Shown one piece after another: positions 1-64,000 of a stretch of DNA of 64,000 nt. Location of the stretch: IMG/VR virus record IMGVR_UViG_3300020442_002661, positions 1-64,000 of that record, one strand, 5' to 3'. The notes beneath the pieces were generated by a model. It was given only the letters and a program-made list of their open reading frames with translations, made no database searches and was not told the origin of the DNA. How positions within the stretch are numbered: the stretch's first letter is position 1; each line of letters starts with the position of its first letter. The position numbers and the translations under genes were made by a program. Source of the stretch: a virus.

Positions 1-1261
1 AGTGTTTTAAGTTTGCTCTCCAGAACGCTTCCGGGTTGTGCGCCTTTTGGTACGCGAGTGCCCAGATGAGTCTTCCGAGATTGACCGCATGAGCTCTGCA
101 TAGCCCGAAACCTGATAGTTCTTGAAGCGCCGCCATAGCTTCTTGCTTACGCGGATTATTACCGAGCCTTTCAACAAATTCCAAAATCTTTTCATCATTC
201 TTTTTTGCAAATGCTCTCCTATACATATCGGCTTCATACATATCTACACCGATGATATTACTTATTATATTAATAGCGTCATCTTCGAATACAATACTAT
301 CTTGTACTACTTCTTGTGACCAGTCTTGGAACATAGCGGCCTTCTGTCTACCACTTAGTGCTACAGGTCTGATCATCGCTGTAGCAAATACACAGTCTTC
401 CATGCTGGTGGGTTGTATAGCACGGAATAAACGCCGCATAGCAGGCGATTCTCCTTGGGTCACACCCAACACATCCCCTCTGGCCAATAAGGCGCTTGTA
501 CGGGCGTCTGTGTGCGGATAATCGGCCAATTTAGTGTCTGGATCAATGTCCATTAGTTGTGATAATCCACGGTTTGCTAGTATATCTACTTTGAGATGTT
601 CTAAGTCTTCTACTTCGTGTTTGTCAAGTAGGATTTGGTTGTCTTGTGATATTAATGATTTTGGTAATTGCCTTGTAAACATTACGATGCCTCCACAGTG
701 TTTTGATATTGCTCTTTTCTTACCTAGTAACTTACGTTCAATACGTTTGGCTTCTTTTGAGTCAACGCCAACGCTTTCGTAAGTAAAGTTACGTGGAAGA
801 TTACCTGTGGCACCTAAACGTTTAGCCGCTTCTCGTCTTGCGGATTTTTCTTTGTAGGTGACGTAGTTGCTTAGTCGTGCAGTCTTACCTGGCCATTTGC
901 GGAATATCCTTTCCATGACTTCCGTCTGTCGATGATGTTCAAAGTCTATGTCCACATCTGGTAGATCGTCCCTCAAAGGGTTCATGAACCGTGCCACAGG
1001 TATGTTCCACTTGATTGGGTCTACATCTGTAATACCCAACAAGTAGCATACAAGACTTGAACCAGCAGATCCTCTAGTCATATGAGTAAGGTCTGTGGTT
1101 AGGTCAATTATGTCACAAATTTGAAGGAAGTAATCAGTGAAACGCTGGTTAAGGATGAGCTCAAATTCTTCTGCCAGGCGAGTTTGATAAATGTCTCCGG
1201 GTGGGATAGGCCTTTTAAATCTGTCTAATAGCCTCTGTATGTTTTCTAAATCTGTTGCCAT
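1..1261 (-). CDS. dnaE: DNA polymerase III alpha (DnaE, family C)-like protein lacking the PHP domain; 3' end runs off the window; absent from the ORF track
   Basis: Manual translation from ATG at 1261 is open to base 1: MATDLENIQRLL...RGSAGSSLVCYLLGITDVDPI...RFMNPLRDDLPDVDIDF...SKHCGG...LKVDIL...AMIRP...GFGLCRAHA...AYQKAHNP, the DnaE palm and finger motifs in canonical order. Confidence 0.9.
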   Translation of the reverse strand, partial: MATDLENIQRLLDRFKRPIPPGDIYQTRLAEEFELILNQRFTDYFLQICDIIDLTTDLTHMTRGSAGSSLVCYLLGITDVDPIKWNIPVARFMNPLRDDLPDVDIDFEHHRQTEVMERIFRKWPGKTARLSNYVTYKEKSARREAAKRLGATGNLPRNFTYESVGVDSKEAKRIERKLLGKKRAISKHCGGIVMFTRQLPKSLISQDNQILLDKHEVEDLEHLKVDILANRGLSQLMDIDPDTKLADYPHTDARTSALLARGDVLGVTQGESPAMRRLFRAIQPTSMEDCVFATAMIRPVALSGRQKAAMFQDWSQEVVQDSIVFEDDAINIISNIIGVDMYEADMYRRAFAKKNDEKILEFVERLGNNPRKQEAMAALQELSGFGLCRAHAVNLGRLIWALAYQKAHNPEAFWRANLKH

Positions 1262-1311
1262 TTATAGCCTCTTCATTGTCTTGTTATGCCTAACGTTATT
1301 TCTAACGCAAG

Positions 1312-1584
1312 TTATTTAGCAAGACGAACAGGCACCACATGTGGAAATTTGATTGGAAAAAGTGTAGCATATTTTGAATCAGGATCGTCTATATCAACAT
1401 AGATATCGCATCTACAAAATCTATCTGCGGTTTGACTTTGGCTATGAACTAGTTTCCATGTCCATTCACGCAGTTCAACTTCTTTGTATAGATCCTCGCC
1501 TACTTCTCTACGAACCCATAGTTGTTCTGCTTTTAGGCCTTTATGACTCCATTTGAAATCACACTGTCCTACATAGTATCTCAT
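1312..1584 (-). CDS. hypothetical protein
   Basis: 90-aa ORF with a 4-nt overlap with the upstream gene; no motif recognised. Confidence 0.65.
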   Translation of the reverse strand: MRYYVGQCDFKWSHKGLKAEQLWVRREVGEDLYKEVELREWTWKLVHSQSQTADRFCRCDIYVDIDDPDSKYATLFPIKFPHVVPVRLAK

Positions 1585-2063
1585 TTATACTCAAAGTTTT
1601 GTGTGTTAGGATTGTGCTTGATTAGTTTTGCTCCGTTGCGAATATGAAAATGAGTAGCCATAGGAGTCAAGGGAGATAGTGTGACAACACGTTTGATATT
1701 TTCATTTTGTTTTACATGTTTATATAATTTGTGTATTATTTCTCTACCTGCTCCTCTTTTACGAGACCAAACTGTATAAGCAACAGCAACATTAGCATCA
1801 TCTTTCATGTGTGCATTCTGACTCATTAGATCTAGTTCTCTTACACTTTCAGGTACATCATTAGTGTATGCTACACAAACAATACCTTCAATATTATCTT
1901 CATATTTCAATCCAAATATTTGTCTACCATATTCTTTACGCCAGTCTAATGTAAGTTCAGGACGTACTGGATCTTCTGTTACATCTATATCTTCTAATAT
2001 AACTAACTCAGTTCCCTTTACCCATTTGAAAAAATCATCTAACTTTTTTTGAAATATTTGCAT
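1581..2063 (-). CDS. GNAT-fold protein resembling the malonyl-CoA decarboxylase catalytic domain
   Basis: VAYTVWSRKRGAGREII (acyl-CoA loop-like) followed by VTLSP and FHIRNGA. Confidence 0.5.
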   Translation of the reverse strand: MQIFQKKLDDFFKWVKGTELVILEDIDVTEDPVRPELTLDWRKEYGRQIFGLKYEDNIEGIVCVAYTNDVPESVRELDLMSQNAHMKDDANVAVAYTVWSRKRGAGREIIHKLYKHVKQNENIKRVVTLSPLTPMATHFHIRNGAKLIKHNPNTQNFEYK

Positions 2064-2066
2064 ATA

Positions 2067-6760: not shown

Positions 6761-7132
6761 ATGTTATTAAAAGATATTGAAAAAAACTTTCCTTATATAT
6801 CCGTTGTTCAATATGGCGGACAGGAATATGTAGGAATAATTATAAACCAAGATCAGTTTGTTACATCTATGTACGTGTACACTGATCTTAAGACTGATTT
6901 AGAACGTAAAAGATTTTTAGAACTAGGGGATACTTGGTGGTGGGAATCAAATAGATTAATTCCTATCAATATATTCTTACGTAAAGATGTTGAACCATTT
7001 AAATACTGTATAGTTACTATGAACAGTAAAGATGTTAAAGTAACTATTGGTCCTACAGTAAATTTAAATAATATGTCAATAAAACGTATTAAGAGGAAAA
7101 ACGTTCAGTTAGTTAAGAAGCCTCGTAATTAA
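6761..7132 (+). CDS. hypothetical phage protein; start moved to ATG 6761
   Basis: MLLKDIEKNFPYISVV...WWWESNRLIPINIFL; fills the gap between two minus-strand genes. Confidence 0.7.
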   Translation: MLLKDIEKNFPYISVVQYGGQEYVGIIINQDQFVTSMYVYTDLKTDLERKRFLELGDTWWWESNRLIPINIFLRKDVEPFKYCIVTMNSKDVKVTIGPTVNLNNMSIKRIKRKNVQLVKKPRN

Positions 7133-7682
7133 GACTTTCACAAATTAAATTCATATGCACAACAACACTTACAGCGTATGCATATGCATGAGCTTTCTTA
7201 AAAAAGTATTCACCGCTTTTTGGTTTTGTCCACACTTCTTTTTCTATCTCTTTCCAACCCTTGTTTGCTAAGTGTCTTTTGGCTGGACGTATGATTGCTA
7301 GTGTTGCCGCCAGTTGAGACACCGATGTAGGTTTCAATTGTTTCAAGAGACTGTCGTGCCCGCTTAGATGAAAAACTTGATCGACGAATTCTTTGTGCTC
7401 CAGTAGTTGCCATAATGGTTCCTTTCTCATTAAACTCTCTAAATGTTTCTCATCTTTTACGTCTTGATATATAGAAACATTTAGGAAATCTAATTTAAAA
7501 TATCCTCGATCTTCAGCAGTTTCATAATCTATTGTAGATAGTTTATCTACAGGGTTGTGCGGAATCTCAGTAACATAAACACCAGTGTTGTGCTTTTTAC
7601 CTGTGTCAAGTTTTGCCACACGGTGTTCAATCTTGTCTAATATCTTTTTTCTATCTGCAAAATCTATATCAATATCAGGCAT
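7113..7682 (-). CDS. minimal or split DnaE-like polymerase catalytic fragment (189 aa)
   Basis: Begins MPDIDIDF; KHNTGVY, GYFKLDFL, LKPTSVSQLAATLAIIRP, YFFKKAHAYAYA. Confidence 0.85.
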   Translation of the reverse strand: MPDIDIDFADRKKILDKIEHRVAKLDTGKKHNTGVYVTEIPHNPVDKLSTIDYETAEDRGYFKLDFLNVSIYQDVKDEKHLESLMRKEPLWQLLEHKEFVDQVFHLSGHDSLLKQLKPTSVSQLAATLAIIRPAKRHLANKGWKEIEKEVWTKPKSGEYFFKKAHAYAYAVSVVVHMNLICESLNYEAS

Positions 7683-11891: not shown

Positions 11892-13184
11892 CTACACCGC
11901 AATAAAGTAAATTACACTAATTGCGGCAATAGCAATACTGCCTGCATTAAGTTCTGCATGTTTACCACTTAAACCTTTAATTACTGCATACGCAATAAAA
12001 CCAATTGCAATACCGTGTGCAATACTAAAAGTCAATGGCATTAATACAGCCGCTAATACTGCTGGAGCATATTCTGTCACATCATCCCAAGCAATGTCAG
12101 CGATGTTGCGTAAGAAATATGTAGCAATAAAGATTAATGCTGGTGCAGTTGCGAATGCAGGAATACTTTGTGCAAGCGGAGCAAAGAATAAACATGCACC
12201 AAACAAGATAGCTACAACTACTGCTGTGAGTCCTGTTTTACCGCCTTCTTTAATACCTGCACCACTTTCAATATATGATGTAGTATTTGAAGTACCTACC
12301 AATGCACCTGCTGTTGTTGCGACTGAGTCTGCTAACAACGCACGATCGATTTGCTCAACTTCTCCTTTTTTGTTAACCTTTCCTGTCAAGTTTGCTACAC
12401 TTGTAAGTGTACCTGCTGTGTCAAAAAAGTCAACAAACAAGAATGCAAATGCAGTACCAATGAAGCCTGCTGTTGCAATCAAACTAAAGTCCATACTAAA
12501 CGCATGTTCTGGACTTGGAATAGCACCTGCTAAGCCATTTAGGTCTGAAATACCTGTTACCCAAGCAATCGCAGACACTGCAAGGATACCAAGGATAATT
12601 GCACCTGGTACTTTACGCTTGTCTAAGATAGCCATGATAATGAATCCTAAACCTGTAAGTAATACTGGCCAACTAGTTACATCACCTAAACCTACAAGTG
12701 TTGCTGGATTGTCTACAACTACACCTGCATTCTTGAGACCAATAATAGCAAGGAATAAGCCAATACCTGCGCCTACACCTAACTTCATTGACTTAGGAAT
12801 ACTGTTGATAATATACTTACGTGCTGGAGTGATACTTAATCCAATAAACACAAGTCCTGCAACAAATACAGCCGCTAATGCTTGTTGATAAGTATAACCC
12901 ATTCCGAAGATAACACCAAATGTAAAGAACGCATTTAGTCCCATACCTGGTGCTAGTGCTACTGGCCAATTAGCCCAGAAGCCCATGATCAGTGTACCAA
13001 TAACTGCGGCAATGATCGTTGCTGTAAAAACAGCGCCAAAGCCCATGCCTGATCCTTCTGTTGAAAGGATAGCTGGGTTGACAACAGTAATGTAAGCCAT
13101 TGTAAGAAATGTAGCAATACCTGCCATTACTTCTGTTTTTACGGATGTACCGGCTTTAGATAAGCCGAAAAGTTTGTCTAACAT
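11892..13184 (-). CDS. NCS2/AzgA-family purine (guanine/hypoxanthine/adenine) permease
   Basis: TEVMAGIATFLTMAYI.VNP.IL, APGMGLNAFF, FVDFFDTAGT, TSYIESGAG..GGKTGLT; many TM segments. Confidence 0.93.
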   Translation of the reverse strand: MLDKLFGLSKAGTSVKTEVMAGIATFLTMAYITVVNPAILSTEGSGMGFGAVFTATIIAAVIGTLIMGFWANWPVALAPGMGLNAFFTFGVIFGMGYTYQQALAAVFVAGLVFIGLSITPARKYIINSIPKSMKLGVGAGIGLFLAIIGLKNAGVVVDNPATLVGLGDVTSWPVLLTGLGFIIMAILDKRKVPGAIILGILAVSAIAWVTGISDLNGLAGAIPSPEHAFSMDFSLIATAGFIGTAFAFLFVDFFDTAGTLTSVANLTGKVNKKGEVEQIDRALLADSVATTAGALVGTSNTTSYIESGAGIKEGGKTGLTAVVVAILFGACLFFAPLAQSIPAFATAPALIFIATYFLRNIADIAWDDVTEYAPAVLAAVLMPLTFSIAHGIAIGFIAYAVIKGLSGKHAELNAGSIAIAAISVIYFIAV

Positions 13185-13199: not shown

Positions 13200-13766
13200 T
13201 TATGTTGAACGATGTTTCTCAATTGCAACATCGTATTTTCCCTTCTTGTTGACATTTTCATGTACAATGTCACCAGTGAAGTGCTCATTGACTTTTTCTT
13301 TCCACCATTCAGGTTTCTGTAAAATTAAATGAGCATTTCTGCCGTCGGGCAGAATCTTTTTTGCTGGCACAGTATCTATACGTAGCCAGATATATTTCTC
13401 TGCAAGTTGATTTAAGTGTGTCATAACTTGATCTAAATAAGCTGGTTCAACATGTTCTAATACATCGTTACAACATACCATCTCATATGTTCTTGTTAAA
13501 TCAGGAGTCATAAACTTTCTTACGCCTGGGTCATAACCAACAACTTCAGGCACCTTATAATCTTCTTGAAACATTTTTACCATGGCTCCTTTGCCACAGC
13601 CAAAATCTAGTATGCTATCAGGAGCCCATTCAAACATAAAACTATCTAATGCTCCTGCTTCTTTTAGAGTACCTCCCCATCCGTGTTTTGTGACTGAATG
13701 GAAATGATACAAAGTTCTTTTGTAATCTGCAGAGCAGTGTACAGGAACTTTTACTTTTTTTGCCAT
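13200..13766 (-). CDS. class I SAM-dependent methyltransferase
   Basis: ILDFGCGKG, GYDPG, CNDVLEHV, NAHL...WW. Confidence 0.85.
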   Translation of the reverse strand: MAKKVKVPVHCSADYKRTLYHFHSVTKHGWGGTLKEAGALDSFMFEWAPDSILDFGCGKGAMVKMFQEDYKVPEVVGYDPGVRKFMTPDLTRTYEMVCCNDVLEHVEPAYLDQVMTHLNQLAEKYIWLRIDTVPAKKILPDGRNAHLILQKPEWWKEKVNEHFTGDIVHENVNKKGKYDVAIEKHRST

Positions 13767-13771
13767 ACTAA

Positions 13772-14461
13772 TTACTTTCCACAAGCAAATTCTTGTTGTA
13801 GTTTAATATTGTCCATGAACTCTTTTTTAGTTCCTGGGTCTTCTCCAAATGCTCCACGCAGTACAGTTGTTTGTGTTAAACTACTGTGAGCACCAATACC
13901 TCTGTTTTCACAACAACCATGTGTTGCTTGTAAGTAAACACCTACGTTAGAACTGCCAGTTGCTTTTTGGATTTCGTTTGCGATAACATTATTTAATTCT
14001 TCTTGTAATGTACCACGTCTAGCACACCATTGTGCAATGCGTGTATATTTAGACAAACCAATTAATCTTTCAGCGGCAATAATACCAATATATGCTACAC
14101 CATTAACTGGTTGATGATGATGAGAACACATACTTTTTATTTCACTACGCACAACTAACATTCCTTTGTATCCATCATCTACATGATTAGGAAATGCAGT
14201 TGCATTTGGCATAGGATCATATCTGCCACTCATTATTTCGTTGAAATACATTTTTGCCAAGCGTCTGCCTGTATCCATACTGTTTGGATCTGTTTTTCTA
14301 TCAATAACTAATGAATCTAAAACTTCTTCAAATTTCTTTGTTGCTTCTTCAATTAGTTCTTCTTTGTCGCCTTTTTGCAAGACTTCACTAATGTTATCTC
14401 CAGCCCAATACCTAATACCAGCATCTTCTAGCCTTGTGATTATTTGTTTACTTTTTGTCAT
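13772..14461 (-). CDS. folE: GTP cyclohydrolase I
   Basis: SMCSHHHQP, IGLSKYTRI, LQEEL, ATHGCCENRG. Confidence 0.93.
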   Translation of the reverse strand: MTKSKQIITRLEDAGIRYWAGDNISEVLQKGDKEELIEEATKKFEEVLDSLVIDRKTDPNSMDTGRRLAKMYFNEIMSGRYDPMPNATAFPNHVDDGYKGMLVVRSEIKSMCSHHHQPVNGVAYIGIIAAERLIGLSKYTRIAQWCARRGTLQEELNNVIANEIQKATGSSNVGVYLQATHGCCENRGIGAHSSLTQTTVLRGAFGEDPGTKKEFMDNIKLQQEFACGK

Positions 14462-28195: not shown

Positions 28196-28210
28196 AATTA
28201 CTCCTATATT

Positions 28211-35780: not shown

Positions 35781-35781
35781 G

Positions 35782-37307: not shown

Positions 37308-37340
37308 ACTAATATTTATCCTGGAGAGAAAAGTGCGTAT

Positions 37341-37372
37341 AAAAAGAAAAAGGGTGACCGAAGCCACCCTTT
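37341..37372 (-). terminator. intrinsic terminator after the tail tube gene
   Basis: GGGTGGC-TTCG-GTCACCC followed by TTTTTCTTTTT. Confidence 0.85.
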
Positions 37373-37398
37373 AAAATCTATGGCAATTTGTTTAGGTA

Positions 37399-38031: not shown

Positions 38032-38064
38032 ATGTTTCTCCTGTTACAGTATTTATCAATTAAC

Positions 38065-38086
38065 GGACCCCATATTTCAGGGGTCC
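38065..38086 (-). terminator. hairpin between sheath and tube genes
   Basis: GGACCCC/GGGGTCC stem; weak U-tract. Confidence 0.5.
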
Positions 38087-38096
38087 ATTTAAACTA

Positions 38097-41000: not shown

Positions 41001-41339
41001 TCCTGCTCTTACAACATATGCTCTGTTGCTTACACCTAATAGACTGTAAGCCGCTTGTAATCCGTATTCATTCAATTCACCGCCGTGTATTGGGTTATTG
41101 TTTGTATCTGTGTAGAACTTAGGTTCTCCAAATGTTTCTACTAAATCCCTTTGTGATGTAATTAGGTAGGGCTTACCTACATTTGCCGCTTCAGTACCGG
41201 CCGCAGTTCCTGTGCCTGCACCGTTAGTTTTGTTCTCTGCTGTTGCAACAAATATCATTGGTACGGTGCCGGGTTCGGCTGGCGTGTAGAAACTTTCGTC
41301 AATTACCTTAACCTCAACACCTGGTGATGATAATGCCAT
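38097..41339 (-). CDS. contractile tail sheath protein (gp18-like) with large insertions; start moved to ATG 41339
   Basis: MALSSPGVEVKVIDES, PWFAPAGTRRG, GQKT, LDRVNVARL, FEPND..TR, CDESNN, IEPVKAVEFIYIP. Confidence 0.95.
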   Translation of the reverse strand: MALSSPGVEVKVIDESFYTPAEPGTVPMIFVATAENKTNGAGTGTAAGTEAANVGKPYLITSQRDLVETFGEPKFYTDTNNNPIHGGELNEYGLQAAYSLLGVSNRAYVVRAGIDLGAITATSSAPTSDPSDGTYWVDTASTLFGIFEWNGAAASTTGGQSFTNKAPIVITDSTLVTGGAPKGSVGSKGDYAVVATTTLFKTYYKNESGTWVEVGSSAWKSSWAVTKGSANPATTSGENFTINSTTITTAGTDADAAVTAINGASISGVTADKDSNNIVRIFSTGANVVIAEGTGLMADLGLTAGTYYAPALNIDPHTSVPEFGTDDTTPRPTGSVWVKTTNPNKGAAWSIKEWNGNTKLWETKSASIYKDRATAIFNMDKDGGGANISQDAVFVRYNDAEASDLVANFKVYKRNSTGATSITSSIIATQLSSGTASFSISESIKGNANLQSAVAISVSVAGDADDAEDIANAINTSTLTNVSASVDSANRIVISHALGGEFRIADTSGHLAEAGYATSGTGATTNLYDAPAGDTTHDFVATLWKVLSATNSATAPTALAADGTLWYNSIVDEADIMVHNGTTWVGYLDSTSPYYAAGAGDQTDPNGPIVSATEPAATNGQSDKTALKNGDIWINTANLDKYPEIYRWSNAKSAWVQLDSSDQTTSDGVLFADARYSTAGANADAATIKDLLTSNFLDPDAPDPALYPKGMLLFNTRRSGFNVKKFVRNYIDTNAENKRMNDAPMTGYYEHRWVTESANNEDGSGRFGQSAQRAVVVQSLQAVMNSNDEIRDDESRIFNVLATPGYPELIGEMISLNYDRGLTAFVVGDSPSTLLPNATSLNEWGTNVNQAVEDNADGLVSRDEYLGVYYPWGFTSDNLGNNIVVPPSHMMLRTIALSDQVSFPWFAPAGTRRGGITNATATGYIDNEGEFVSVALNEGQRDTLYGISVNPITFITGAGLVCFGQKTRAKNASSLDRVNVARLVIYLRSQLNKLAKPYIFEPNDKITRDEIKQAAESLMLELVGSRALYDYIVVCDESNNTPSRIDRNELYLDIAIEPVKAVEFIYIPLRLKNTGEIAGL

Positions 41340-41372
41340 ATTCATTCTCCTTTTGGAATAAGTGTTCATTAG

Positions 41373-41443
41373 TATTTATGTGTTTTGTAATTAATTTGCC
41401 TATAATAGCACCAGAAAAAGGGGTCAAAAAGGTATGGTAAATA
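41373..41443. promoter_or_regulatory. divergent late-like promoters (sheath / HNH)
   Basis: CATAAATA on minus (41373-41380); GGTAAATA on plus (41436-41443), 5 nt before ATG 41449. Confidence 0.6.
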
Positions 41444-41448
41444 ACAAT

Positions 41449-41787
41449 ATGAGACCATTATGTGTTTGTAAACAAAGACCTGCGGCGGTAAACTATAAAA
41501 AAGAAGGCAAAGTATACTACAGAAAAAAATGTGAAGTGTGCCTTAAAGGAAACCGTATAGGTGTAGGAATACCAAAGTGGAAGTTATCAGGATATATCAA
41601 AAAAGATACTTGTGAAAAATGTGGATTCAAAAGCAGACACAAAGAACAGTTCAATGTCTATCATATTGATGGAGATTTGAATAATTGTTTGCCAAACAAT
41701 TTAAAAACTGTATGTGCTAACTGTCAACGAATTATGCAGAAACAAGGCGTTCGTTGGAAGCAAGGAGACCTAACACCTGACTTCTAA
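41449..41787 (+). CDS. Zn-binding HNH-fold protein; start moved to ATG 41449
   Basis: CEKCGF, VYHIDGDLNN, NLKTVCANCQ plus an N-terminal Cys cluster. Confidence 0.75.
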   Translation: MRPLCVCKQRPAAVNYKKEGKVYYRKKCEVCLKGNRIGVGIPKWKLSGYIKKDTCEKCGFKSRHKEQFNVYHIDGDLNNCLPNNLKTVCANCQRIMQKQGVRWKQGDLTPDF

Positions 41788-42340
41788 GTTCATCCATAGT
41801 ACCGTTGTTGTGTATTGTTAGGGTGTATCCTGCATTTGCCCAACGCCATTCGCTTTCATGTATGTCCTTAGGTTCTACACCAATATCTTGATACATTCTG
41901 AACCATACAGGATCAATGCCACGTTGTACACGCCATACTTTGCCGCCAATTTCTTTAATCATTTTAATTTCATTTGGAAAACGTACATCTGGGATTATAA
42001 AGTTTTTATTAGGATTTTGTAGTATGTGTTGTTTTGTAAGGCTAACCCAAATACCATCATAAAAGCCCTTACGCATACAATCTGTGCCATATTCTTGTAG
42101 CACTAATCTTGGAGTGATTGTTCTGCCTGTTTCTTGTGTCCAAAAAGTATCAACTGTTTCTCGCCATTCACGACTTTCGTCAGTATCGCCTTCTAGCATT
42201 TGCCTATCCCAATTAAAGACACTTGCTACACCGTCTTTTAATTTGTCAGCAAAACTTATTTTTTCATAACCTTGTTCAACAAGTACATCAGCAACAGTAC
42301 CTTTACCACTGCCTATCAAGCCACATAAGCCAATTATCAT
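41732..42340 (-). CDS. deoxynucleoside monophosphate kinase (T4 gp1-like)
   Basis: GLIGSGKGT, SFADKLK, TPRLVLQEYGT, DVRFPNE, HESE. Confidence 0.92.
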   Translation of the reverse strand: MIIGLCGLIGSGKGTVADVLVEQGYEKISFADKLKDGVASVFNWDRQMLEGDTDESREWRETVDTFWTQETGRTITPRLVLQEYGTDCMRKGFYDGIWVSLTKQHILQNPNKNFIIPDVRFPNEIKMIKEIGGKVWRVQRGIDPVWFRMYQDIGVEPKDIHESEWRWANAGYTLTIHNNGTMDELRSQVLGLLASNERLVSA

Positions 42341-42954
42341 ACACGCAACTCCGACGTTCCTTCCCCTACATGTCCTCTTGGAAAGTAGTTAAATGCCAAG
42401 CTATATCTAGGAGTATCTGTAAGATTAGGTGTTACCATGTGTTCTAAGTGACTTGGAAATAACACTATATCTCCTGCTCTTGGCGTAATAAAAAATTCAT
42501 TTGTATTATGTATATTAGTCTCTTTGTAGCTCATTCTCACTGTATCGTGGAACAAGTTATTCCAAAGATGTGATTTTTGGAACACAATATCACCTGCTCC
42601 TTCCGCACTATCTACATAGTATACACCACTCAACATAGCGTTACTATGCCAGTGTAGTGTATTGTGTTCACCTTTTGCATGCCTGTTTACCCAGCTATTC
42701 TCAAGACCAAACTTTACATTATCATTTACTTGTAATACTTCGTGTACAAAATGCTGTACAGCATCGTCTATTTGCTTTGCTAATACTTCAAGTGTAGCAT
42801 CATTGAGTATATACTTGTTTGCTGTATGATCATGTCCTGCGGCTTCGTCAGGATATTCAAAGTTTTTGATTACATTTTTTACGTCAGCGTCTAGCTCTCC
42901 AATATTAGAATAAAATAACGGAATGCTAAACAGTTGTATTAGATTATGTTTCAT
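42337..42954 (-). CDS. 2OG-Fe(II) oxygenase (TIGR02466-like)
   Basis: LFSIP, SWVN, HWHSNAMLSGVYY, FPSHLEHMV, RYSLAFN. Confidence 0.85.
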   Translation of the reverse strand: MKHNLIQLFSIPLFYSNIGELDADVKNVIKNFEYPDEAAGHDHTANKYILNDATLEVLAKQIDDAVQHFVHEVLQVNDNVKFGLENSWVNRHAKGEHNTLHWHSNAMLSGVYYVDSAEGAGDIVFQKSHLWNNLFHDTVRMSYKETNIHNTNEFFITPRAGDIVLFPSHLEHMVTPNLTDTPRYSLAFNYFPRGHVGEGTSELRV

Positions 42955-43595
42955 ATTGTTAACCTTACTGAATTTTCACCTACAGTACCTTTAGGAAAAT
43001 AATTAAATGCCAAACTGTATCTATCTTGTTTATCTTGACTTTTAGCTACTTGATGTTCTAAATGGCTTGGAAAAATTAAACAATCTCCAGTCATAGGCTG
43101 AACAGTCCACGAACCAGTAGTGTATTGGGACCAATTATCATTTGTGTTCGGTCGTACATGTTCTGGAAAAGTATTAAGATGTTGTCTATTCTTCTTAAAT
43201 GTTATAGGATTTGCAGTTGGTCCAATATCAGGATAGTATACTCCACTTACTAATGCGTTTGCATGATTGTGTAATTCAATATCACTACCTGTATTCATTT
43301 TGTTAATCCAACTTGTAGTTAGTACAAATTCTGTTTCATCTGTTACATCACAGATTGTGTAAACAAAATGATCAACTGCCTTTTTAATTAAATTTTGTAA
43401 ATTTTGTAATTTTGATTGACGTAAAACGTCAAAGCCTCTTTCCCAAGGATTTAAATCTTCTTCTCCTTGGTATTGTGCTACAGAATTTGTAGGATATTCT
43501 AAATTTTTAAGCCATGCTAAAGTAATTGGATCTAGTGGACCGATATGAGTCTTTAATAACGGAGTAGAAAATAGAGGTGTAATTTCATAGTGCAT
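42951..43595 (-). CDS. 2OG-Fe(II) oxygenase (TIGR02466-like), tandem paralog
   Basis: LFSTP, SWIN, HNHANALVSGVYY, FPSHLEHQV, RYSLAFN. Confidence 0.85.
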   Translation of the reverse strand: MHYEITPLFSTPLLKTHIGPLDPITLAWLKNLEYPTNSVAQYQGEEDLNPWERGFDVLRQSKLQNLQNLIKKAVDHFVYTICDVTDETEFVLTTSWINKMNTGSDIELHNHANALVSGVYYPDIGPTANPITFKKNRQHLNTFPEHVRPNTNDNWSQYTTGSWTVQPMTGDCLIFPSHLEHQVAKSQDKQDRYSLAFNYFPKGTVGENSVRLTI

Positions 43596-43601
43596 TTATA
43601 T

Positions 43602-43630
43602 AATATAGCACCTAAAAATACGTTTGTCAA
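43602..43630 (-). promoter_or_regulatory. sigma70-like promoter
   Basis: TTGACA-N17-TATATT-N6-ATG (43595). Confidence 0.75.
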
Positions 43631-43637
43631 GTATAAA

Positions 43638-44396
43638 TTAACCTATAAGGAAACCGTAGCCTGCACCACCTGCTACTTGTGTTGAAACATCAGCTTCTAG
43701 TTTCTCCATCTCAGCTTGTGCTTCTGCTTTAAGTGCATCACCATTAAGTGCAGAGCCGCCTTGTGGTCCTGCTATCTGTGCAAACTTACTTCGTGCTTCA
43801 CCTAACATATATTTGCAAGTTGCAACAGTATAATCTTTAATCCATTGTTTTGCTAGATAATCTTCTAGTAAGTTTTCATCTGGCCGATAGTTGTAAGCCA
43901 TAAGCAATAGTGTTTCGTCTGTTCTTGGACGTTGAAGAAGTGTTATTTCTTTTGTGACTGTATTCCATTTAAATTCTATAAACGAACCAAACATACGCCC
44001 TACTAGTTCTTGATATTGAGAGAAAAGATCATATGTTGCAAGTCCTCCCATGTTAGATGAACTTAGCAAATAGGTGTTAGTATATGCCATGTTGAAAGGT
44101 TCAAATAAAGTACCACCATCACCTCCGCCAGTGCGTGAGCCAATTGATCTACGGAATATTTTACGTACTTCAATTACTTCATTTGGCAATGTATATGTAT
44201 TTTCATCTGTCAAAGTTTTCATAAACAAGTAAGATTCTTCTACGCTATTGTCAGAACGTTGTCTAAATTTTGATAGAGCTTTACTTAATGCTGTTTCATA
44301 ATGCACTGGATCAAGCTCAACATCAACCATGCCGCCACCTAACATAGCGTTTACATAGTCAAATACTTCTTGCTTTTTAGTTTGTAGTGTGGCCAT
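43638..44396 (-). CDS. neck protein (gp13-like); start moved to ATG 44396
   Basis: LGGGMVDVEL, WIKDY..A.CKYMLGEARSKF, PQGG..LNG; SD GGAG. Confidence 0.85.
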   Translation of the reverse strand: MATLQTKKQEVFDYVNAMLGGGMVDVELDPVHYETALSKALSKFRQRSDNSVEESYLFMKTLTDENTYTLPNEVIEVRKIFRRSIGSRTGGGDGGTLFEPFNMAYTNTYLLSSSNMGGLATYDLFSQYQELVGRMFGSFIEFKWNTVTKEITLLQRPRTDETLLLMAYNYRPDENLLEDYLAKQWIKDYTVATCKYMLGEARSKFAQIAGPQGGSALNGDALKAEAQAEMEKLEADVSTQVAGGAGYGFLIG

Positions 44397-44414
44397 ATAA
44401 AAGTTCTCCAATAG

Positions 44415-44434
44415 TATTTATCGTAAGATAAATA
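44415..44434. promoter_or_regulatory. divergent late-like promoter pair
   Basis: GATAAATA on both strands (44415-44422 minus, 44427-44434 plus). Confidence 0.7.
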
Positions 44435-44439
44435 TGTTT

Positions 44440-45597
44440 ATGCCAAGACTATCTTTATATAAACCAGAAAAAGGCAGGGATTATCATTTCTTAGACAGAC
44501 AAATTCAAGAAATGTTTACTGTGGGCGGAACAGACATATTTGTTCACAAATACCTCGGGCCTGAAAATCCAGCAGAAGCAGATGCTACAGCAGATCAGCC
44601 TCGTTATGATGCTGTCAAAAGTACAAATATACAGGACATGCTATTTTTAGAAAATAGAGATCGAAAGTATGATCCAGACATTTATACTATGCGAGCTGTA
44701 TATAATGTTCAAGACATAGACTTTGATTTGAGTCAATTTGGTATGTTTTTGAGTAACGATACATTGTTCATGACAATACATATAAACAGTAGTGTAAAGA
44801 CACTTGGTAGGAAAATTATGAGTGGCGATGTAATTGAACTACCACATTTGAAAGACGAGTATGCACTAAATGATCATACAATAGCATTAAAACGCTTTTA
44901 CGTTGTTGAAGATGTTAATAGAGCCGCTGAAGGTTTTTCACCTAGTTGGTATCCACATTTATATAGATTAAAATTAAAACAGATTGTTGATTCACAAGAA
45001 TTCAAAGAAATACTTGATCTTCCAGCAGAAGAAGGTTCAGACAACACACTAAGAGACTTGCTTTCTACATATGAAAAAGAAATGCAAATTAACAATGCAG
45101 TTGTAGATCAAGCAGAAGTAGATGCTAAAAAATCAGGATATGATATTAGCCATTATTACACTTTAGCAACAAATGATGATGGCACAGTTGCTTTAACTAC
45201 TGCTGATGAAACAGATATTGATGCAAGTAGCGTAGGATCAAATGCAAGTGATGTACATGAGAAACCTAGTAGATTAGGCTATCAAGGTTATTTACTTGGC
45301 GTTGAAGAAGGACCAAACGGTGCTCCATATGGTATGGGCATAAGTTTTCCATCGCAACCAGAAACAGGTGATTACTTTTTACGTACTGATTACATGCCAA
45401 AAAGATTATTTAAATATGATGGAGGTAGATGGGTGAAAATGCAAGATGGTGTTCGTGTTGACCTTACAAACACAGATACAAGAAATACTCAAAAAACTAC
45501 ATTCATTAACAATACAAAAACAAATACTATTGGTGGTGAACAAGTTCAAGAAAGACAAAGTCTTTCAAAAGCACTTAGACCTAAGGCAGATAATTAA
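44440..45597 (+). CDS. neck/head-closure protein (gp14-like); start moved to ATG 44440
   Basis: MPRLSLY, LSQFGMFL.ND, GDVIELP; lies between gp13-like and gp15-like genes. Confidence 0.75.
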   Translation: MPRLSLYKPEKGRDYHFLDRQIQEMFTVGGTDIFVHKYLGPENPAEADATADQPRYDAVKSTNIQDMLFLENRDRKYDPDIYTMRAVYNVQDIDFDLSQFGMFLSNDTLFMTIHINSSVKTLGRKIMSGDVIELPHLKDEYALNDHTIALKRFYVVEDVNRAAEGFSPSWYPHLYRLKLKQIVDSQEFKEILDLPAEEGSDNTLRDLLSTYEKEMQINNAVVDQAEVDAKKSGYDISHYYTLATNDDGTVALTTADETDIDASSVGSNASDVHEKPSRLGYQGYLLGVEEGPNGAPYGMGISFPSQPETGDYFLRTDYMPKRLFKYDGGRWVKMQDGVRVDLTNTDTRNTQKTTFINNTKTNTIGGEQVQERQSLSKALRPKADN

Positions 45598-47069
45598 TGC
45601 AACATTTTTATGATGGACAAATAAGAAGATACGTTACTCAAATGGTAAGACTTATGAGTAATTTCTCTGTAAAAGATGGTTCAGGTACATTAAAACAAGT
45701 TCCTGTTATGTATGGTGATTTAACTAGACAGGTTGCAAGTATTATACGAGATAATAGTGAAAACAAAATACCTAGTGCTCCACGTATGGCAGTTTATATA
45801 AATTCATTAGAAATGGATAGGTCTAGAACAGCTGATGCAAGTTATGTTAGCAAAGTAAATATCCGTGAACGTGCTTATGATGAAAACAACGAGGAATATC
45901 TAAATACACAAGGTAAAAATTATACTGTAGAACGACTTATGCCAACGCCTTACACCCTTGGCTTTACTGTTGATATATGGAGTTCAAACACAGATCAAAA
46001 ATTACAGATTATGGAACAAATACTTACATTGTTCAATCCTAGTTTAGAAATACAAACAACAGACAACTATATAGACTGGACAAGTTTAAGTGTTGTTAAT
46101 ATGGAAGGCATTACATTTAGTTCAAGAAGTATTCCTGTAGGTGTTGACAGTGACATTGATGTTGCTAACATGACATTTACAACACCTATCTATTTGTCAC
46201 CTCCTATTAAGGTTAAGAGACTAGGTGTTATTACAAATATTATAACAAGTGTATTCAACGAAGATAAAGGTACAATAGATTTAAGTTTGAGTAGACCTGA
46301 ATTAAAAGCATATGATGATAGTGTAATAGCTGGATCTAAACCTACAACAGATGGTAACACTGAAACTGTAAACGACAGTAACGCTATACCTGTTAACGTA
46401 AGTCATAAAAATTATGGTATTTACATCACAGGTACTATGGCGCAATTAGTTGCAAACAATAGAGTAGGTAGCACTAATTGGCGCAATGTAATTGATACTT
46501 ACCCTGGTCAATATCAAGATGATATTAGCAGGTTGTACATAAGACGCAGTGACGAAAATAGAGATGTTACAGGAACAATTAGTTTAAATCCAAATGATGA
46601 AACACAATTAATGGTAAATTGGGATTTAGATTCATTCCCAAGTAATACTATAATAAATGGACCTACTAGATTAAATGCACAATGGACAAGCATAGATTAC
46701 ATAATAGATCCATTAAAAACTAATCCTATTACAGAAAACATGCGTGGACTTGGATCTCGTATATTATTGTTAAATGATATAGGTGATGCTGATAACGGAA
46801 ATGAAGGTCCATCAGCATGGGATGGTAATTTCCAAGGTACTGATCTTGTTGCAAGTAAAGATGATATTGTTGAATGGGATGGTAATCAGTGGCGCATTGT
46901 ATTTGATGCAAGTGAAAATAAATTAGTATACAACGATGAAGTTTTAACCACAGTATACACAACTAACCTAAAAACAGGTATACAATATCGTTGGGATGGT
47001 TCAGATTGGCTATTAAGTGTTGAAGGACTCTATCCAAACGGTACCTGGCGTCTAAGCCTAAACGGCTAA
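45597..47069 (+). CDS. tail terminator/sheath stabiliser (gp15-like) with C-terminal extension
   Basis: FYDGQIRRY, VPVMYG, PRMAV, MPTPY, QIMEQILTLFNP. Confidence 0.85.
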   Translation: MQHFYDGQIRRYVTQMVRLMSNFSVKDGSGTLKQVPVMYGDLTRQVASIIRDNSENKIPSAPRMAVYINSLEMDRSRTADASYVSKVNIRERAYDENNEEYLNTQGKNYTVERLMPTPYTLGFTVDIWSSNTDQKLQIMEQILTLFNPSLEIQTTDNYIDWTSLSVVNMEGITFSSRSIPVGVDSDIDVANMTFTTPIYLSPPIKVKRLGVITNIITSVFNEDKGTIDLSLSRPELKAYDDSVIAGSKPTTDGNTETVNDSNAIPVNVSHKNYGIYITGTMAQLVANNRVGSTNWRNVIDTYPGQYQDDISRLYIRRSDENRDVTGTISLNPNDETQLMVNWDLDSFPSNTIINGPTRLNAQWTSIDYIIDPLKTNPITENMRGLGSRILLLNDIGDADNGNEGPSAWDGNFQGTDLVASKDDIVEWDGNQWRIVFDASENKLVYNDEVLTTVYTTNLKTGIQYRWDGSDWLLSVEGLYPNGTWRLSLNG

Positions 47070-47529: not shown

Positions 47530-48777
47530 ATGATAAGAGTATATGGCGATATAATGCTAGACAGGTGGATTAAAGGAGTATCACAGCGTGTTAGTCCTGA
47601 AGCACCAGTCCTTGTGTTACAAGAAGAAGAACAAATATTCTGCCCAGGCGGAGCAGGTAATCTTGCATTAAATATTGCAAGTCTTAATGGTAGTGTAAAT
47701 GTATATGGTAGTATTGCACCAGATAAAGAAGGTTATAGAATTATTGATTGCTTTGAAAAGCATCCAAAAATTAATTTTGCCGCTACACTAGATAGTAAAA
47801 TTACAACTACAAAAAATAGATTAGTAGGTCAAGGAGGGCAACATATTGTACGTTGGGATAGAGAAGAACTTTATACCGGCGACGAAGCATACGAAAGATG
47901 TATAACAGATATAACAACAAAAGACATTGTGGTTGTAAGTGACTATGCAAAGGGAACTGTAAAAGAAAAAACTGTTTGGAATTTTGCTAGACGCTGTAAA
48001 ACACTAGTAGATCCTAAACAAGCCCCTGCATATTATCAAGGAGCATATCTTGTAAAACCTAATATGAAAGAATATGAAGGTTGGTTCGGAACATTCAATA
48101 AACTAGATGCATTAGATCATATTAAAACTTACGAATGGACCTATCTTGTTGTTACAGATGGTGCAAACGGTATGCATGTGTTAAGCGATGATGGAAGATA
48201 TGAACATATTCAAGAAGAAGCAAAAGAAGTAGCAGACGTTACTGGTGCTGGAGACACTGTACTGGCTGTCATTGCATACTTTATTGAACAAGGTTTAGAT
48301 ATGTTTGATGCTTGTAGGAAAGCATGTTATGCCGCGGCAAGAGCTGTAGAACACAGAGGAGTTCATGTAGTTACACATAACGACCTAGAAAAAGTAGTTT
48401 TTACAAACGGTGTTTTTGATATCTTGCACAAAGGACATTTACACTTATTGAAAGAAGCACGTAGTTTAGGTAATAAACTGATTGTAGCAATTAATACAGA
48501 CGCAAGTGTACAAAGATTAAAAGGAAACGGCCGTCCTATTAACGATGTTCAAACAAGACAAGCACAATTAGAAGTATTGCCTTGGGTAGATGAGGTCATT
48601 ACATTTACAGATGATACGCCTTTAGAACTTATTAATAAAATTAAACCAGATTTAATTGTCAAGGGTGGCGATTATAAAGTTGAAGATGTTGTTGGCCATG
48701 AGATTGCAGATGTGCATATTGTGCCTATAATAGACGGATTGTCGACATCTAATATAGTAGAAAAAATTACAATATGA
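47530..48777 (+). CDS. hldE: bifunctional heptose-7-phosphate kinase / heptose-1-phosphate nucleotidyltransferase
   Basis: GDIMLD, RVSPEAPV, GGAGN, SDYAKG, DVTGAGDT; then TNGVFDILHKGH, RLKGNGRPIN, VKGGDY, GLSTSNI. Confidence 0.93.
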   Translation: MIRVYGDIMLDRWIKGVSQRVSPEAPVLVLQEEEQIFCPGGAGNLALNIASLNGSVNVYGSIAPDKEGYRIIDCFEKHPKINFAATLDSKITTTKNRLVGQGGQHIVRWDREELYTGDEAYERCITDITTKDIVVVSDYAKGTVKEKTVWNFARRCKTLVDPKQAPAYYQGAYLVKPNMKEYEGWFGTFNKLDALDHIKTYEWTYLVVTDGANGMHVLSDDGRYEHIQEEAKEVADVTGAGDTVLAVIAYFIEQGLDMFDACRKACYAAARAVEHRGVHVVTHNDLEKVVFTNGVFDILHKGHLHLLKEARSLGNKLIVAINTDASVQRLKGNGRPINDVQTRQAQLEVLPWVDEVITFTDDTPLELINKIKPDLIVKGGDYKVEDVVGHEIADVHIVPIIDGLSTSNIVEKITI

Positions 48778-50008: not shown

Positions 50009-50615
50009 TGATGTAAACATTGATTTCTACAAACCAGATTATATTGCACCAAAGTGTGTTGTAGGTTTAGATAGAGATGGTGTTATTAATGTAGATATTG
50101 GAGATTACGTTTACAAAAAAAGTGACTGGAAATTTGAAGAGGGCAGTTTAGAAGCAATAGTAAAATTACGTAAATTAGGACACAAGATAGTTATTATAAC
50201 TAATCAAGGCGGTATAGAAAAAGGTATCTACACACAAGAAGATGTAGAAAAATTACATGCACATATGTTTGAAGAATTTGGTAAGGCAGGTTGTCCTAGT
50301 ATAGATGGATTGTACTACAGTGCATCAAGTGCAAAGAATGATATGTATGCAAAACCTAATACAGGAATGTTTAAGCGTTGCGAAAAAGAAGTTCCTCATG
50401 TGAAATTTTCCCAAGGATATTATGTTGGTGATAGAATAAGAGATTTAAAGGCAGGATTAAAGATGGGTGCGAAACCAATTCTAGTCCGAACTGGACATGG
50501 TAAAGAAACAGAAGAATTAATTAACAAAAGATTCACATATAAAAATATTAGGAAAGCAACAAAAGTATTTGATAACCTAGCCGCATTTGTTGATAGTTTA
50601 GATGATAATAGTTAG
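49980..50615 (+). CDS. gmhB: D,D-heptose-1,7-bisphosphate phosphatase (HAD family)
   Basis: LDRDGVIN, TNQGGI, KPNTGM, VGDRIRD, LVRTGHG. Confidence 0.85.
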   Translation: MRSPTITWSNDVNIDFYKPDYIAPKCVVGLDRDGVINVDIGDYVYKKSDWKFEEGSLEAIVKLRKLGHKIVIITNQGGIEKGIYTQEDVEKLHAHMFEEFGKAGCPSIDGLYYSASSAKNDMYAKPNTGMFKRCEKEVPHVKFSQGYYVGDRIRDLKAGLKMGAKPILVRTGHGKETEELINKRFTYKNIRKATKVFDNLAAFVDSLDDNS

Positions 50616-51162
50616 AGACGATTACATTCCACAACATATACAAGATTATTTACATACAGCAGTATTTGGTACTGAAGAAATAAATGCTATGTTGCCCTTA
50701 ACTGCAAAAGTAGAGCCCACAGCATATGATGGCGAAAATCCTTTGCCTGTTAGTTTTCAACATGTGTTTATGAGTAGTACAAGTCACACAGAATGGTTTG
50801 GAAATTTTAGTAAAATACCACAAATAGTATGTAAGAAAATGGAAGTAGAGCTAATAGATATTATTGCCGCAAGACTTTTTATAACTGTTCCGCACAAAAC
50901 TAAATTAGAACATTATGCACCGCACACAGATAGACCAGAACCTCATCTTGGCTTAATTTATTATGTAAACGATAGCGACGGAGACACACTTTTCTTTGAC
51001 GATCCTAGTTTAGAAAACAATTGGAAACCAGAGATTATAGAAAGAGTAAGTCCAAAAAAAGGACGTATTGTCTTGTTTGATGGTAGTCATTTACATGCAG
51101 GTGGATATCCTACTGATGTGCCTCGCTGTATTGTAAATTACAACATTAGAGCTGAACGTTAA
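50602..51162 (+). CDS. 2OG-Fe(II) oxygenase
   Basis: PHTD, IYYVNDSDGDT, PKKGRIVLFDGSHLHA, R.IVNYN. Confidence 0.85.
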   Translation: MIIVRDDYIPQHIQDYLHTAVFGTEEINAMLPLTAKVEPTAYDGENPLPVSFQHVFMSSTSHTEWFGNFSKIPQIVCKKMEVELIDIIAARLFITVPHKTKLEHYAPHTDRPEPHLGLIYYVNDSDGDTLFFDDPSLENNWKPEIIERVSPKKGRIVLFDGSHLHAGGYPTDVPRCIVNYNIRAER

Positions 51163-62659: not shown

Positions 62660-63603
62660 TATTCTGCGTCTGGATCATTTTCTCTTTTGATAACGCCAAC
62701 AATATATTCACGCAGATTATCATCCATTTGCATTATACCTTCGTTAGCTCTATTAACAGTTTCGTCAACTGTAATTCTAATAGGATCGTATTGTCTATCT
62801 TTCATTCCCATGTCTACAATTTTTAATTTTTCTTGTCCTGGATATGATATGTTAATCGGAAAAGTAGATCCAACAACAACAGTAGTTTCTGTATCAACAG
62901 CATATGACAAATGTTGTCCAACACTATCACAACCTAAGAAATGATCTGCGGCTTTGATTACACTTGTCCACTGCCTTAATCCTAGCCCCTCTGGCATAGC
63001 AACTTCGTTTTTCAATCCTTCACCTTTGAGCTCCATTTTCAATTCGCTCATCATAATAATTCCGTAATCTTTTTCTATAAGTTTTAATAACCTTTTTACA
63101 TCAGCCCATTCAAAACTTCTTCCTGTTGAGTCCATAGGTGTTTCATTAATAATTTCTACACCTCTACCAAAAGGTTGGAATACTAATACTTTATCTTTTT
63201 TTAATTTTTGTTTTACTTCGTCAACTATTTGACGTCCTACAAGTATTTCATTATGACTTAATTTTACAAAAGGTTTATCTAAATCTCTGACTCCTTTTTC
63301 ATTAAGTAGAATATCAAATGCTTGTGATAAATTACATTTTTGATTATAGTATTCCCATACTTGATATGGTTCTGGGTTTACTACTTGCCTATGTTTTATT
63401 TCGCTTTCAAAAAGATTTTTATGCCAAGGATCGTATGCACGTTTATGTAGTGTAGGATGACCTTTAAACATATCTGTGCCACCTTCACATACGATAATAA
63501 AATCTTTATCTCCTGATTCTTCTTCATATTTTTCTAGTGCAGGAATAGAACACAGCATACGCCCAGCGCCGCCATTTAGAAAAAATGCCTTCGATCTTGT
63601 CAT
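62659..63603 (-). CDS. GT9-like (heptosyltransferase-fold) glycosyltransferase
   Basis: NGGAGRMLCSIPAL, FQPFG, LRQWTSVIKAADHFLGCDSVGQHLSYA. Confidence 0.65.
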   Translation of the reverse strand: MTRSKAFFLNGGAGRMLCSIPALEKYEEESGDKDFIIVCEGGTDMFKGHPTLHKRAYDPWHKNLFESEIKHRQVVNPEPYQVWEYYNQKCNLSQAFDILLNEKGVRDLDKPFVKLSHNEILVGRQIVDEVKQKLKKDKVLVFQPFGRGVEIINETPMDSTGRSFEWADVKRLLKLIEKDYGIIMMSELKMELKGEGLKNEVAMPEGLGLRQWTSVIKAADHFLGCDSVGQHLSYAVDTETTVVVGSTFPINISYPGQEKLKIVDMGMKDRQYDPIRITVDETVNRANEGIMQMDDNLREYIVGVIKRENDPDAE

Positions 63604-63620
63604 ATTATAATTACTCCATT

Positions 63621-63672
63621 AAAAAAGGTCGGACTCAACATTATATATTAAAGTATAGTGTTAAGTCCGACC
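63621..63672 (-). terminator. long imperfect hairpin with U-tract
   Basis: GGTCGGACT...AGTCCGACC followed by TTTTTT on minus. Confidence 0.7.
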
Positions 63673-63701
63673 CAAATTGGATAGAGAATTTTTTTTAAAT
63701 T

Positions 63702-64000
63702 TTATGCTTCGCCTGCATCTGGTGGATTAGGATCATCCCAATCTGGAAGTGTTTCTTCTGAGAAAGGCCATTTCCAGTGATTAACATTAGCGTATTTACG
63801 TGGTGCATCATCTAACCAATCTGCATGGTTAGTAAGTGTAGTTCTTTCATCGTCTGTGAAAGTTTGGTTTGTGTCCGCTAAAGCACGTCTAATCGCATCT
63901 GATTGTCCCTCTAAACTGTCAAGAACACTTTGTCTTGAGTTATTGTGTTCTCTAAATTGAGGTTCTCTCCATGTGTCTGTTTCATGCGTGTATAGTAAAC
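63702..64000 (-). CDS. C-terminal part of a protein resembling tail-fibre assembly chaperones; start outside window; not in track
   Basis: Manual translation ...DTWREPQFRE...ERTTLTNHADWLDDAPRKYANVNHWKWPF...GEA*. Confidence 0.55.
   Translation of the reverse strand, partial: LLYTHETDTWREPQFREHNNSRQSVLDSLEGQSDAIRRALADTNQTFTDDERTTLTNHADWLDDAPRKYANVNHWKWPFSEETLPDWDDPNPPDAGEA

Follow-up and report, generated by a model that had tools for sequence, protein, structure and literature searches.

The viral contig IMGVR_UViG_3300020442_002661 raises the question of why a five-letter word that should occur in it dozens of times is missing altogether. The contig is a linear IMG/VR record of 85,962 bases, estimated by CheckV to represent ∼24% of the genome, and the window analyzed here comprises its bases 1 to 64,000 (36.2% G+C; 81 open reading frames (ORFs) and 96% coding according to our own longest-ORF calls, made with no trained gene finder). 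An initial annotation of the window had proposed that the word GCWGC (W = A or T) is avoided throughout, having noted by eye that GCAGC and GCTGC were absent where a few dozen sites would be expected. The counts agreed with this description: the window contains 0 GCAGC, 0 GCTGC, 27 GCGGC, and 77 GCCGC, and the entire contig, counted on both strands, possesses no GCWGC and 151 GCSGC (S = G or C). For comparison, the number of GCWGC sites expected in the window was 42.8 given its base composition, 77.9 and 72.6 under Markov models of first and maximal order, respectively, and 76.1 ± 4.4 when synonymous codons were shuffled within genes (500 shuffles, minimum 63); the same codon shuffle applied to the contig gave 109.5 ± 5.2 (1000 shuffles, minimum 94). 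The codon-preserving shuffle that had been suggested as a check on the avoidance therefore yielded an observed/expected ratio of zero, far from 1. When all 512 strand-merged 5-mers of the contig were ranked, as had also been suggested, GCWGC was the most depleted (z = −21.7, with the next word at −7.0; 200 shuffled genomes) and GCSGC was the most enriched, with 151 copies versus 38.3 expected (four-fold, z = +19.2). The contig thus shows the under-representation that defines restriction-site avoidance, as judged against a null model that accounts for both composition and codon usage.

The manner in which the word has been removed depends on the reading frame. In shuffled versions of the contig, 96 of the expected sites fall in Ala-Ala pairs, ∼9 in NGC+WGC codon pairs, and ∼4 in G-CWG-C contexts (hyphens mark codon boundaries). 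All 116 Ala-Ala pairs of the contig begin with GCG (82) or GCC (34), and 1674 of the 1808 Ala codons outside such pairs (93%) are GCA or GCT. The corresponding values for the window are 81/81 and 1209/1320, which substantiates the earlier remark that single Ala codons are mostly GCA or GCT and that Ala-Ala pairs start with GCG or GCC; furthermore, a GCSGC was found within 12 nt of each of the 14 positions cited in its support. Where Ala precedes any other codon starting with G, GCA or GCT is used 545 times out of 575, which makes this an effect of the five-letter word itself and not a bias at codon junctions in general. The two remaining frames contain no site either, with 0 NGC+WGC codon pairs and 0 G-CAG-C or G-CTG-C contexts. 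The number of Ala-Ala pairs is near that expected (116 versus 133.5), indicating that the proteins are little altered. We also examined sites at which a relative retaining the word has GCWGC and the encoded amino acids are identical (415 site-by-locus comparisons, which are non-independent). The words that the window carries there are GCGGC or GCCGC (frame 0), GTAGC (frame 1), and ACAAC (frame 2). Conversion of W to S by an error process would be non-synonymous in two frames out of three, and the observed replacements, being synonymous, argue against such an error. GCWGC was removed purely by silent changes, with retention of the proteins.

To place this pattern in its clade, we used the large terminase as a marker, fetched the whole contigs of relatives, and ran the identical codon shuffle on each. 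IMG/VR holds at least 599 terminase relatives, of which the best 80 exhibit 81 to 88% terminase identity and reside on contigs of up to 275 kb. Taken together, these 80 loci show no overall depletion (2210 GCWGC versus a first-order expectation of 1653), and a minority of them is nearly free of the word. Seven relatives besides the window are purged to a similar extent, and one is intermediate; the purged contigs stem from different IMG/VR metagenome records. In the unpurged contigs G006 (275 kb) and G007 (201 kb), the coding GCWGC counts were 442 and 270, compared to 463.8 and 283.1 in the shuffles (observed/expected of 0.95 in both), and 84% of the Ala-Ala pairs in each start with GCA or GCT. 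The purged contigs G001, G002, G003, and G004 yielded 3, 6, 3, and 0 coding sites versus 67.6, 44.4, 26.1, and 26.6 in the shuffles, with GCA or GCT leading only 4, 12, 4, and 0% of their Ala-Ala pairs, respectively. The intermediate contig G005 (locus L079; 56,755 bases) has 38 coding sites against 95.0, a GCA/GCT-first proportion of 34%, and 92 GCSGC against 28.1 expected. Pooled purged DNA (220 kb) contains 13 GCWGC versus 284 expected, pooled unpurged DNA (1.33 Mb) contains 2796 versus 1955 expected, and GCWGC is by far the strongest word difference between the two groups. Because close relatives have observed/expected values of 0.95, the purge belongs to particular lineages and not to the codon usage of the clade; these controls rule out a lineage-wide composition or codon-pair bias as the cause. 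As a separate observation, GCSGC exceeds the shuffle even in the unpurged genomes (270 versus 158.4 in G006 and 193 versus 101.1 in G007), an excess that may be a trace of earlier purges, of recombination with purged lineages, or of a codon-pair preference.

The purged state is persistent. At four-fold degenerate sites, the window is 55 to 58% identical to the other purged contigs, and the value for unpurged contigs is 50 to 54%, where saturation corresponds to 39%. Conserved Ala-Ala pairs in the purged genomes swap between GCG and GCC and almost never adopt GCA or GCT. In the contig, 402 single-base changes that are silent or non-coding would create a GCWGC, and none of these sites exists. 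The near-saturated silent sites combined with 402 unused routes back indicate that the purged state is old and actively maintained. Population variants add nothing on this point, since none of the 40 listed among ∼600 differences creates a GCWGC and only ∼0.4 such changes would be expected, leaving the comparison powerless. Long-term selection against GCWGC acting at the level of DNA is strongly supported by the codon-preserving null model, the same-clade controls, the frame-specific synonymous replacements, and the maintenance in lineages saturated at silent sites.

We used the terminase to map the trait onto the clade. On the protein tree the purged lineages lie dispersed, and the purged label requires 5 changes, 3 of which are forced by well-supported branches; holding the 8 purged rows monophyletic costs 88.7 log-likelihood units and is not rejected (P value of the approximately unbiased test, p-AU, of 0.07). 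With a nucleotide alignment from which all GCNGC columns were masked, the count rises to 6 changes (5 forced) and monophyly is rejected at p-AU 0.014, where the purged group was defined post hoc, after the counts had been seen, and recombination can mimic multiple origins. The genomes are indeed mosaic: the window resembles G004 most in its 33 to 47 kb region but L001 and L002 most in its terminase. These analyses suggest that the purge was likely gained or lost repeatedly.

We favor the explanation, with a probability of about 0.7, that the phage DNA is unprotected at GCWGC and has been exposed to an endonuclease cutting this word, most likely a restriction enzyme carried by part of the host population. 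The earlier attribution to long-term selection by a host GCWGC system holds firmly for the selection, and a host restriction system is the most economical account of its source; that the agent is a nuclease, and that it is host-encoded, is what we infer. Such an enzyme could be of the TseI/ApeKI type, with the palindromic site GCWGC, or of the BbvI type, the BbvI site being the asymmetric GCAGC that reads as GCWGC once both strands are counted. Every site would then be a potentially lethal cut, and variants lacking sites would win. The reading frame would dictate the removal route (GCA or GCT to GCG or GCC before Ala, TGC to TGT, and CAG to CAA), and new sites arising by mutation would be purged continually. 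The initial annotation was correct in naming GCWGC as a known type II site: it is described as the site of ApeKI and TseI (PMC4926085), with cleavage by TseI at G^CWGC.

The gene content is consistent with unprotected DNA. We found no match to a C5 or N4/N6 DNA methyltransferase or to TGT/DpdA in the contig, a statement that covers ∼24% of the genome, and no C5 or N4/N6 methyltransferase in the large relatives. No TGT match was present in 6 clade contigs, though FolE is encoded, and QueC gave no match above the cut-off in five contigs (G000, which is that of the window, and G005 to G008), where a single 12-bit match was obtained. Protection by 7-deazaguanine (DpdA) was considered and rejected, because FolE is present but TGT and QueC were not found in the contigs searched. 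Within the limit set by the partial genome, these absences fit the prior suggestion that base modification leaves the DNA at least partly unprotected.

The picture is similar in several ways to known cases. In the survey of Rusinov et al. (2018, PMC6286503), roughly one viral genome in ten is reported to have eliminated type II sites completely or nearly so, the effect being more pronounced in non-temperate phages. By analogy, the contig appears to fit the published elimination of sites in non-temperate double-stranded DNA phages facing orthodox type II systems: as in the surveyed phages, a short type II word has been fully eliminated from a lytic-looking double-stranded DNA phage by silent recoding. 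A search of 5 clade contigs for Phage_integrase gave no match; these genomes are incomplete, the fullest being estimated at 77%. The present case differs from the survey in that purged, unpurged, and intermediate genomes occur within one uncultured clade, thus supplying same-clade controls. For TseI/ApeKI and BbvI-type enzymes, the recognition word is the missing word, and the enriched GCSGC is not cut by these enzymes. Apart from the survey itself, the supplements of which may list cases, our literature searches turned up no description of marine phages that avoid GCWGC; a GCWGC match in PMC11094077 proved to be only a PCR primer.

Two cultured SAR11 phages, HTVC019P and HTVC011P (loci L228 and L227), are podoviruses unrelated to the window phage and provide a further comparison. 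HTVC019P partially exhibits the same signature, with 13 GCWGC versus 53.8 ± 2.9, 46 GCSGC versus 8.8, and GCA or GCT first in 12 of 57 Ala-Ala pairs. HTVC011P contains just 3 GCNGC in 39,921 bases and 2 Ala-Ala pairs among ∼815 Ala codons, which suggests that its avoidance may reach the protein level. In contrast, no purge is seen in HTVC008M (142 GCWGC versus 163.5 expected) or HTVC010P, which were isolated on the same strain. The patterns of the two podoviruses indicate that GCWGC-directed pressure exists among SAR11 phages.

A gene of the window also recalls SAR11. The nucleobase permease is 77 to 84% identical in protein sequence to genes on Pelagibacteraceae chromosomes, as represented by dozens of genomes from single cells and metagenomes; the matches sit on contigs of up to 660 kb, and a few differently labelled metagenome-assembled genomes score alike. 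No homologue was found in the other clade contigs examined. The phage gene contains 0 GCWGC and 4 GCSGC, as compared to averages of 2.71 and 1.64 in 45 SAR11 copies. At a conserved Ala-Ala-Val, 41 of 47 SAR11 genes have a GCWGC (most commonly GCT GCT GTA), and the phage has GCC GCA GTT. Judging by these sequences, a phage permease that lacks the sites of its SAR11 orthologues fits with recoding after capture, and SAR11 is the putative host of the phage.

The relatives of the window also retain a few sites with a distinctive context. In the purged contigs G001, G002, G003, and L001, 12 of the 13 residual GCWGC are GGCWGC or GCWGCC, compared to a baseline of 202/734 (27–28%) in two unpurged genomes (binomial P = 1.8e-6). 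Flanked sites are depleted as well in these relatives, though less, and the window has zero survivors of either kind. The flanked survival could stem from an extended enzyme specificity or from a partial shield at GG/CC steps. To our knowledge, sparing of GGCWGC/GCWGCC is no described property of TseI/ApeKI or BbvI-type enzymes. The survivors in HTVC019P are not G/C-flanked (0/13), and HTVC008M has 46 of 149 sites flanked. In the intermediate G005, flanked sites make up 13/39, the baseline proportion, and sites are distributed along the whole contig. The baseline flanks suggest that these sites are not subject to the same filter, and the lineage may be regaining sites; G005 may thus represent regain after relaxed selection or, alternatively, an early-stage purge.

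A broader scenario would join these strands, and we hold it only tentatively, as something rather less probable than its opposite. Restriction directed at GCWGC would be widespread, though varying between strains, in an abundant group of marine hosts (plausibly SAR11), and would have driven complete, repeated, and independent purges in this clade of ∼350-kb phages and in the unrelated cultured SAR11 podophages. The effective target would be longer than GCWGC, such that GGCWGC/GCWGCC is spared, or some partial shield would operate at GG/CC steps, and G005 would subsequently have escaped the pressure and regained sites.

Several findings weigh against a host restriction enzyme, or against SAR11 as its source. 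The flanked survivors are not predicted by a plain GCWGC enzyme. The permease is the sole gene pointing to SAR11, and identity to SAR11 genes is only ∼50% for KdsA and ∼30% for FolE. Searches of 5 and subsequently 60 SAR11-family genomes did not recover the terminase, an empty result that is uninformative. The host fingerprint anticipated by the initial annotation was not obtained, in that the observed/expected ratio of GCWGC is 0.90 to 1.10 in 8/8 SAR11 genomes (100 kb each; five with C5-methyltransferase cassettes). Likewise, 48 SAR11 loci show no self-avoidance of the word (502 versus 361–606). In none of the candidate hosts did we identify an endonuclease or methyltransferase specific for GCWGC. 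C5 DNA methyltransferases occur in 75 of 401 sampled Pelagibacterales genomes. In the environmental methylomes described in PMC6329791 and PMC8919816, GCWGC methylation is reported only in Chloroflexi, where it is due to an orphan m4C (N4-methylcytosine) enzyme; a plasmid-protection assay is described for M.AbaBS3I in PMC6329791. Finally, the portion of the genome in hand leaves room for a phage-encoded nuclease or modification system.

That last point bears on the possibility that the phage encodes the nuclease, or that a competing phage or a mobile element does. An enzyme specific for GCWGC and unaccompanied by a methyltransferase would degrade the DNA of the host or of rivals and leave a site-free phage safe. 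We regard this as unlikely. No DNA methyltransferase was indeed found in the contig, and a dNMP kinase, an enzyme that would help to recycle degraded DNA, is present in 4/5 purged versus 2/16 unpurged contigs. It lies between conserved genes at a syntenic site in the window, G002, G004, and G005, and is not there in G001 or 14 unpurged relatives. As a trait-linked gene the kinase was nevertheless rejected, because the initial 4/5 versus 0/14 gave way to its presence in the unpurged loci L018 and L069 and, with purged G001 lacking it, the association is weak and non-exclusive. The sole nuclease fold near the core genes, a TnsA-like protein, is equally conserved (69–79% identity) in purged and unpurged contigs and was dismissed as the cause since it accompanies both states. 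Except for glycan/heptose genes shared with G005, no family occurs in at least two purged lineages while being absent from the 1.33 Mb of unpurged DNA, in a screen limited by the fragmentary genomes. Overall, the search for a self-nuclease by Pfam and PHROG scans (covering 56 different ORFs of the window), by gene content versus two large unpurged relatives, and by the purged-specific family screen revealed nothing convincing. A modification-dependent enzyme is a less probable agent still. If the phage cytosines were modified, the pressure could come from a type IIM enzyme of the BisI family, acting on methylated GCNGC and preferring or requiring GCWGC. BisI-family enzymes are described as cutting GCNGC modified with 5-methylcytosine (m5C), with some cutting GCWGC better than GCSGC, one tabulated as GCWGC-preferring, and one requiring four m5C in GCWGC (PMC4926085); moreover, GCWGC is named among the type IIM sites under-represented in phages (PMC6286503), and the dNMP kinase is again compatible. 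These enzymes need m5C, however, and the contig, again with ∼24% of the genome represented, encodes neither a C5 methyltransferase (PF00145) nor a thymidylate-synthase/dCMP-hydroxymethylase homologue (PF00303), while the four-fold enrichment in GCSGC would be risky against most members of the family, which cut GCNGC.

Explanations that dispense with a nuclease, such as mutational bias, codon-pair or translational preference, or an avoided regulatory or packaging signal, appear very improbable. The GCSGC excess of the unpurged relatives does hint at some codon-pair bias or old history in the clade, but close relatives with the same codon usage keep GCWGC near expectation, all three frames and both strands have been emptied, the word is a palindrome-with-W matching a known enzyme site, and an exact zero in the face of 402 silent routes back needs selection at each site. 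We give almost no credence to an artefact of assembly or base calling at a motif that is methylated. Modification-linked nanopore errors at motifs that include GCWGC have been reported (PMC10687267), yet the replacements here preserve synonymy in a different way in each frame, at least 7 further contigs, drawn from other metagenome records, bear the same signature, and contigs from four other studies cover window positions 26001 to 46000 at 90 to 100% identity, with X6 including pieces that have zero differences.

The contig encodes a T4-type large terminase, a tail sheath of 1090 amino acids, and giant virion proteins, along with helicases, UvsX-like and gp32-like proteins, and numerous sugar-metabolism genes; the structural genes are of the myovirus type by their PHROG matches. 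The closest named phages are PA5oct-like Pseudomonas jumbo phages, with terminase identity of only 53 to 54%, and a megablast search of 20 kb against a phage collection gave zero matches. Near-identical DNA occurs in marine or seawater metagenomes of 7 studies, where five of the rows may represent the source sample. A contig of 238 kb that encodes an identical KdsA is also on record. A cyanophage identity was rejected, as psbA was not found in 5 large relatives. The features of the window are collected in the table. The family names assigned by PHROGs call for caution in two instances: one 2-oxoglutarate (2OG)-Fe(II) oxygenase family is named 'DNA endonuclease V', which looks like a carry-over of the HTVC008M annotation and not a nuclease, and the permease family is named 'tail protein', which looks mis-annotated.

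Table. Positions of genes and recoded sites in the 64,000-base window
Feature	Position	Strand	Basis or remark
DNA polymerase III alpha-like gene	2-1261	-	DNA_pol3_alpha and finger domains; cut by the left end of the contig
189-amino acid ORF	7113-7682	-	No Pfam match at E 0.001
Nucleobase permease (Xan_ur_permease)	11892-13184	-	Pfam match
Small S-adenosylmethionine (SAM)-dependent methyltransferases	13200-13784, 23705-24193, 25070-25630		General-family matches; within glycan gene cluster
gp32-like gene	28252-29325	-	Weak gp32 Pfam match
Recoded Ala-Ala cluster	28316-28362	-	GCCGC (+ strand) at 28316, 28325, and 28358, inside the gp32-like gene
Large terminase	31344-32924	-	PHROG match; marker for gathering relatives and mapping the trait
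TnsA-like PD-(D/E)xK endonuclease-fold gene	35340-35780	-	Pfam Tn7_TnsA-like_N, E 2.3e-23
dNMP kinase	41732-42340	-	Pfam DNMK and phrog_139
2OG-Fe(II) oxygenase genes (three in all)	42337-43595	-	
	50602-51162	+	
Ala-Ala-Ala encoded as GCC GCG GCA	48331-48338	+	GCCGC at 48331 and GCGGC at 48334; gene 47530-48777

Other words are also scarce in this DNA. AAGCTT, the HindIII word, is absent from the contig versus 22.2 copies expected from the codon shuffle, and AGCT (147 versus 259.3), CTGCAG (5 versus 28.8), and TCTAGA (9 versus 29.3) are depleted by the same measure. The scarcity of AGCT and AAGCTT is clade-wide, extending to the unpurged G006 and G007 (AAGCTT observed/expected counts of 41/134 and 40/92), and is stronger in the GCWGC-purged contigs (AGCT observed/expected of 0.41, versus 0.63 in unpurged contigs). 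In SAR11 coding DNA, CCGG is depleted (observed/expected of 0.39–0.90), most strongly in genomes possessing C5 cassettes, and GANTC has a ratio of 0.57 to 0.82. The SAR11 cassettes (G012, G079, G093, G140, G145, and others; loci L209 to L222) often contain tandem pairs of C5 methyltransferases plus an HNH gene, and an alternative arrangement consists of methyltransferase-MTaX1-methyltransferase adjoining DUF4420 (PD-(D/E)xK) and Z1-domain genes.

Avoidance of restriction sites is itself textbook knowledge, and the value of this case lies in its setting, an abundant and uncultured clade of marine giant phages. The features worth keeping are the flanked survivors, the recoding of a putatively host-derived gene, and the polymorphism within the clade. 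Purged, unpurged, and intermediate close relatives amount to a natural experiment in which phage lineages are sorted according to the defences that their host strains possess. The favored explanation makes the testable prediction that part of the host population cuts unmethylated GCWGC; in addition, digestion of viral-fraction DNA with TseI or ApeKI should enrich the purged genomes. SAR11 is often described as poorly defended, and if it is the host, these findings would bear on the extent of active restriction defence in SAR11.

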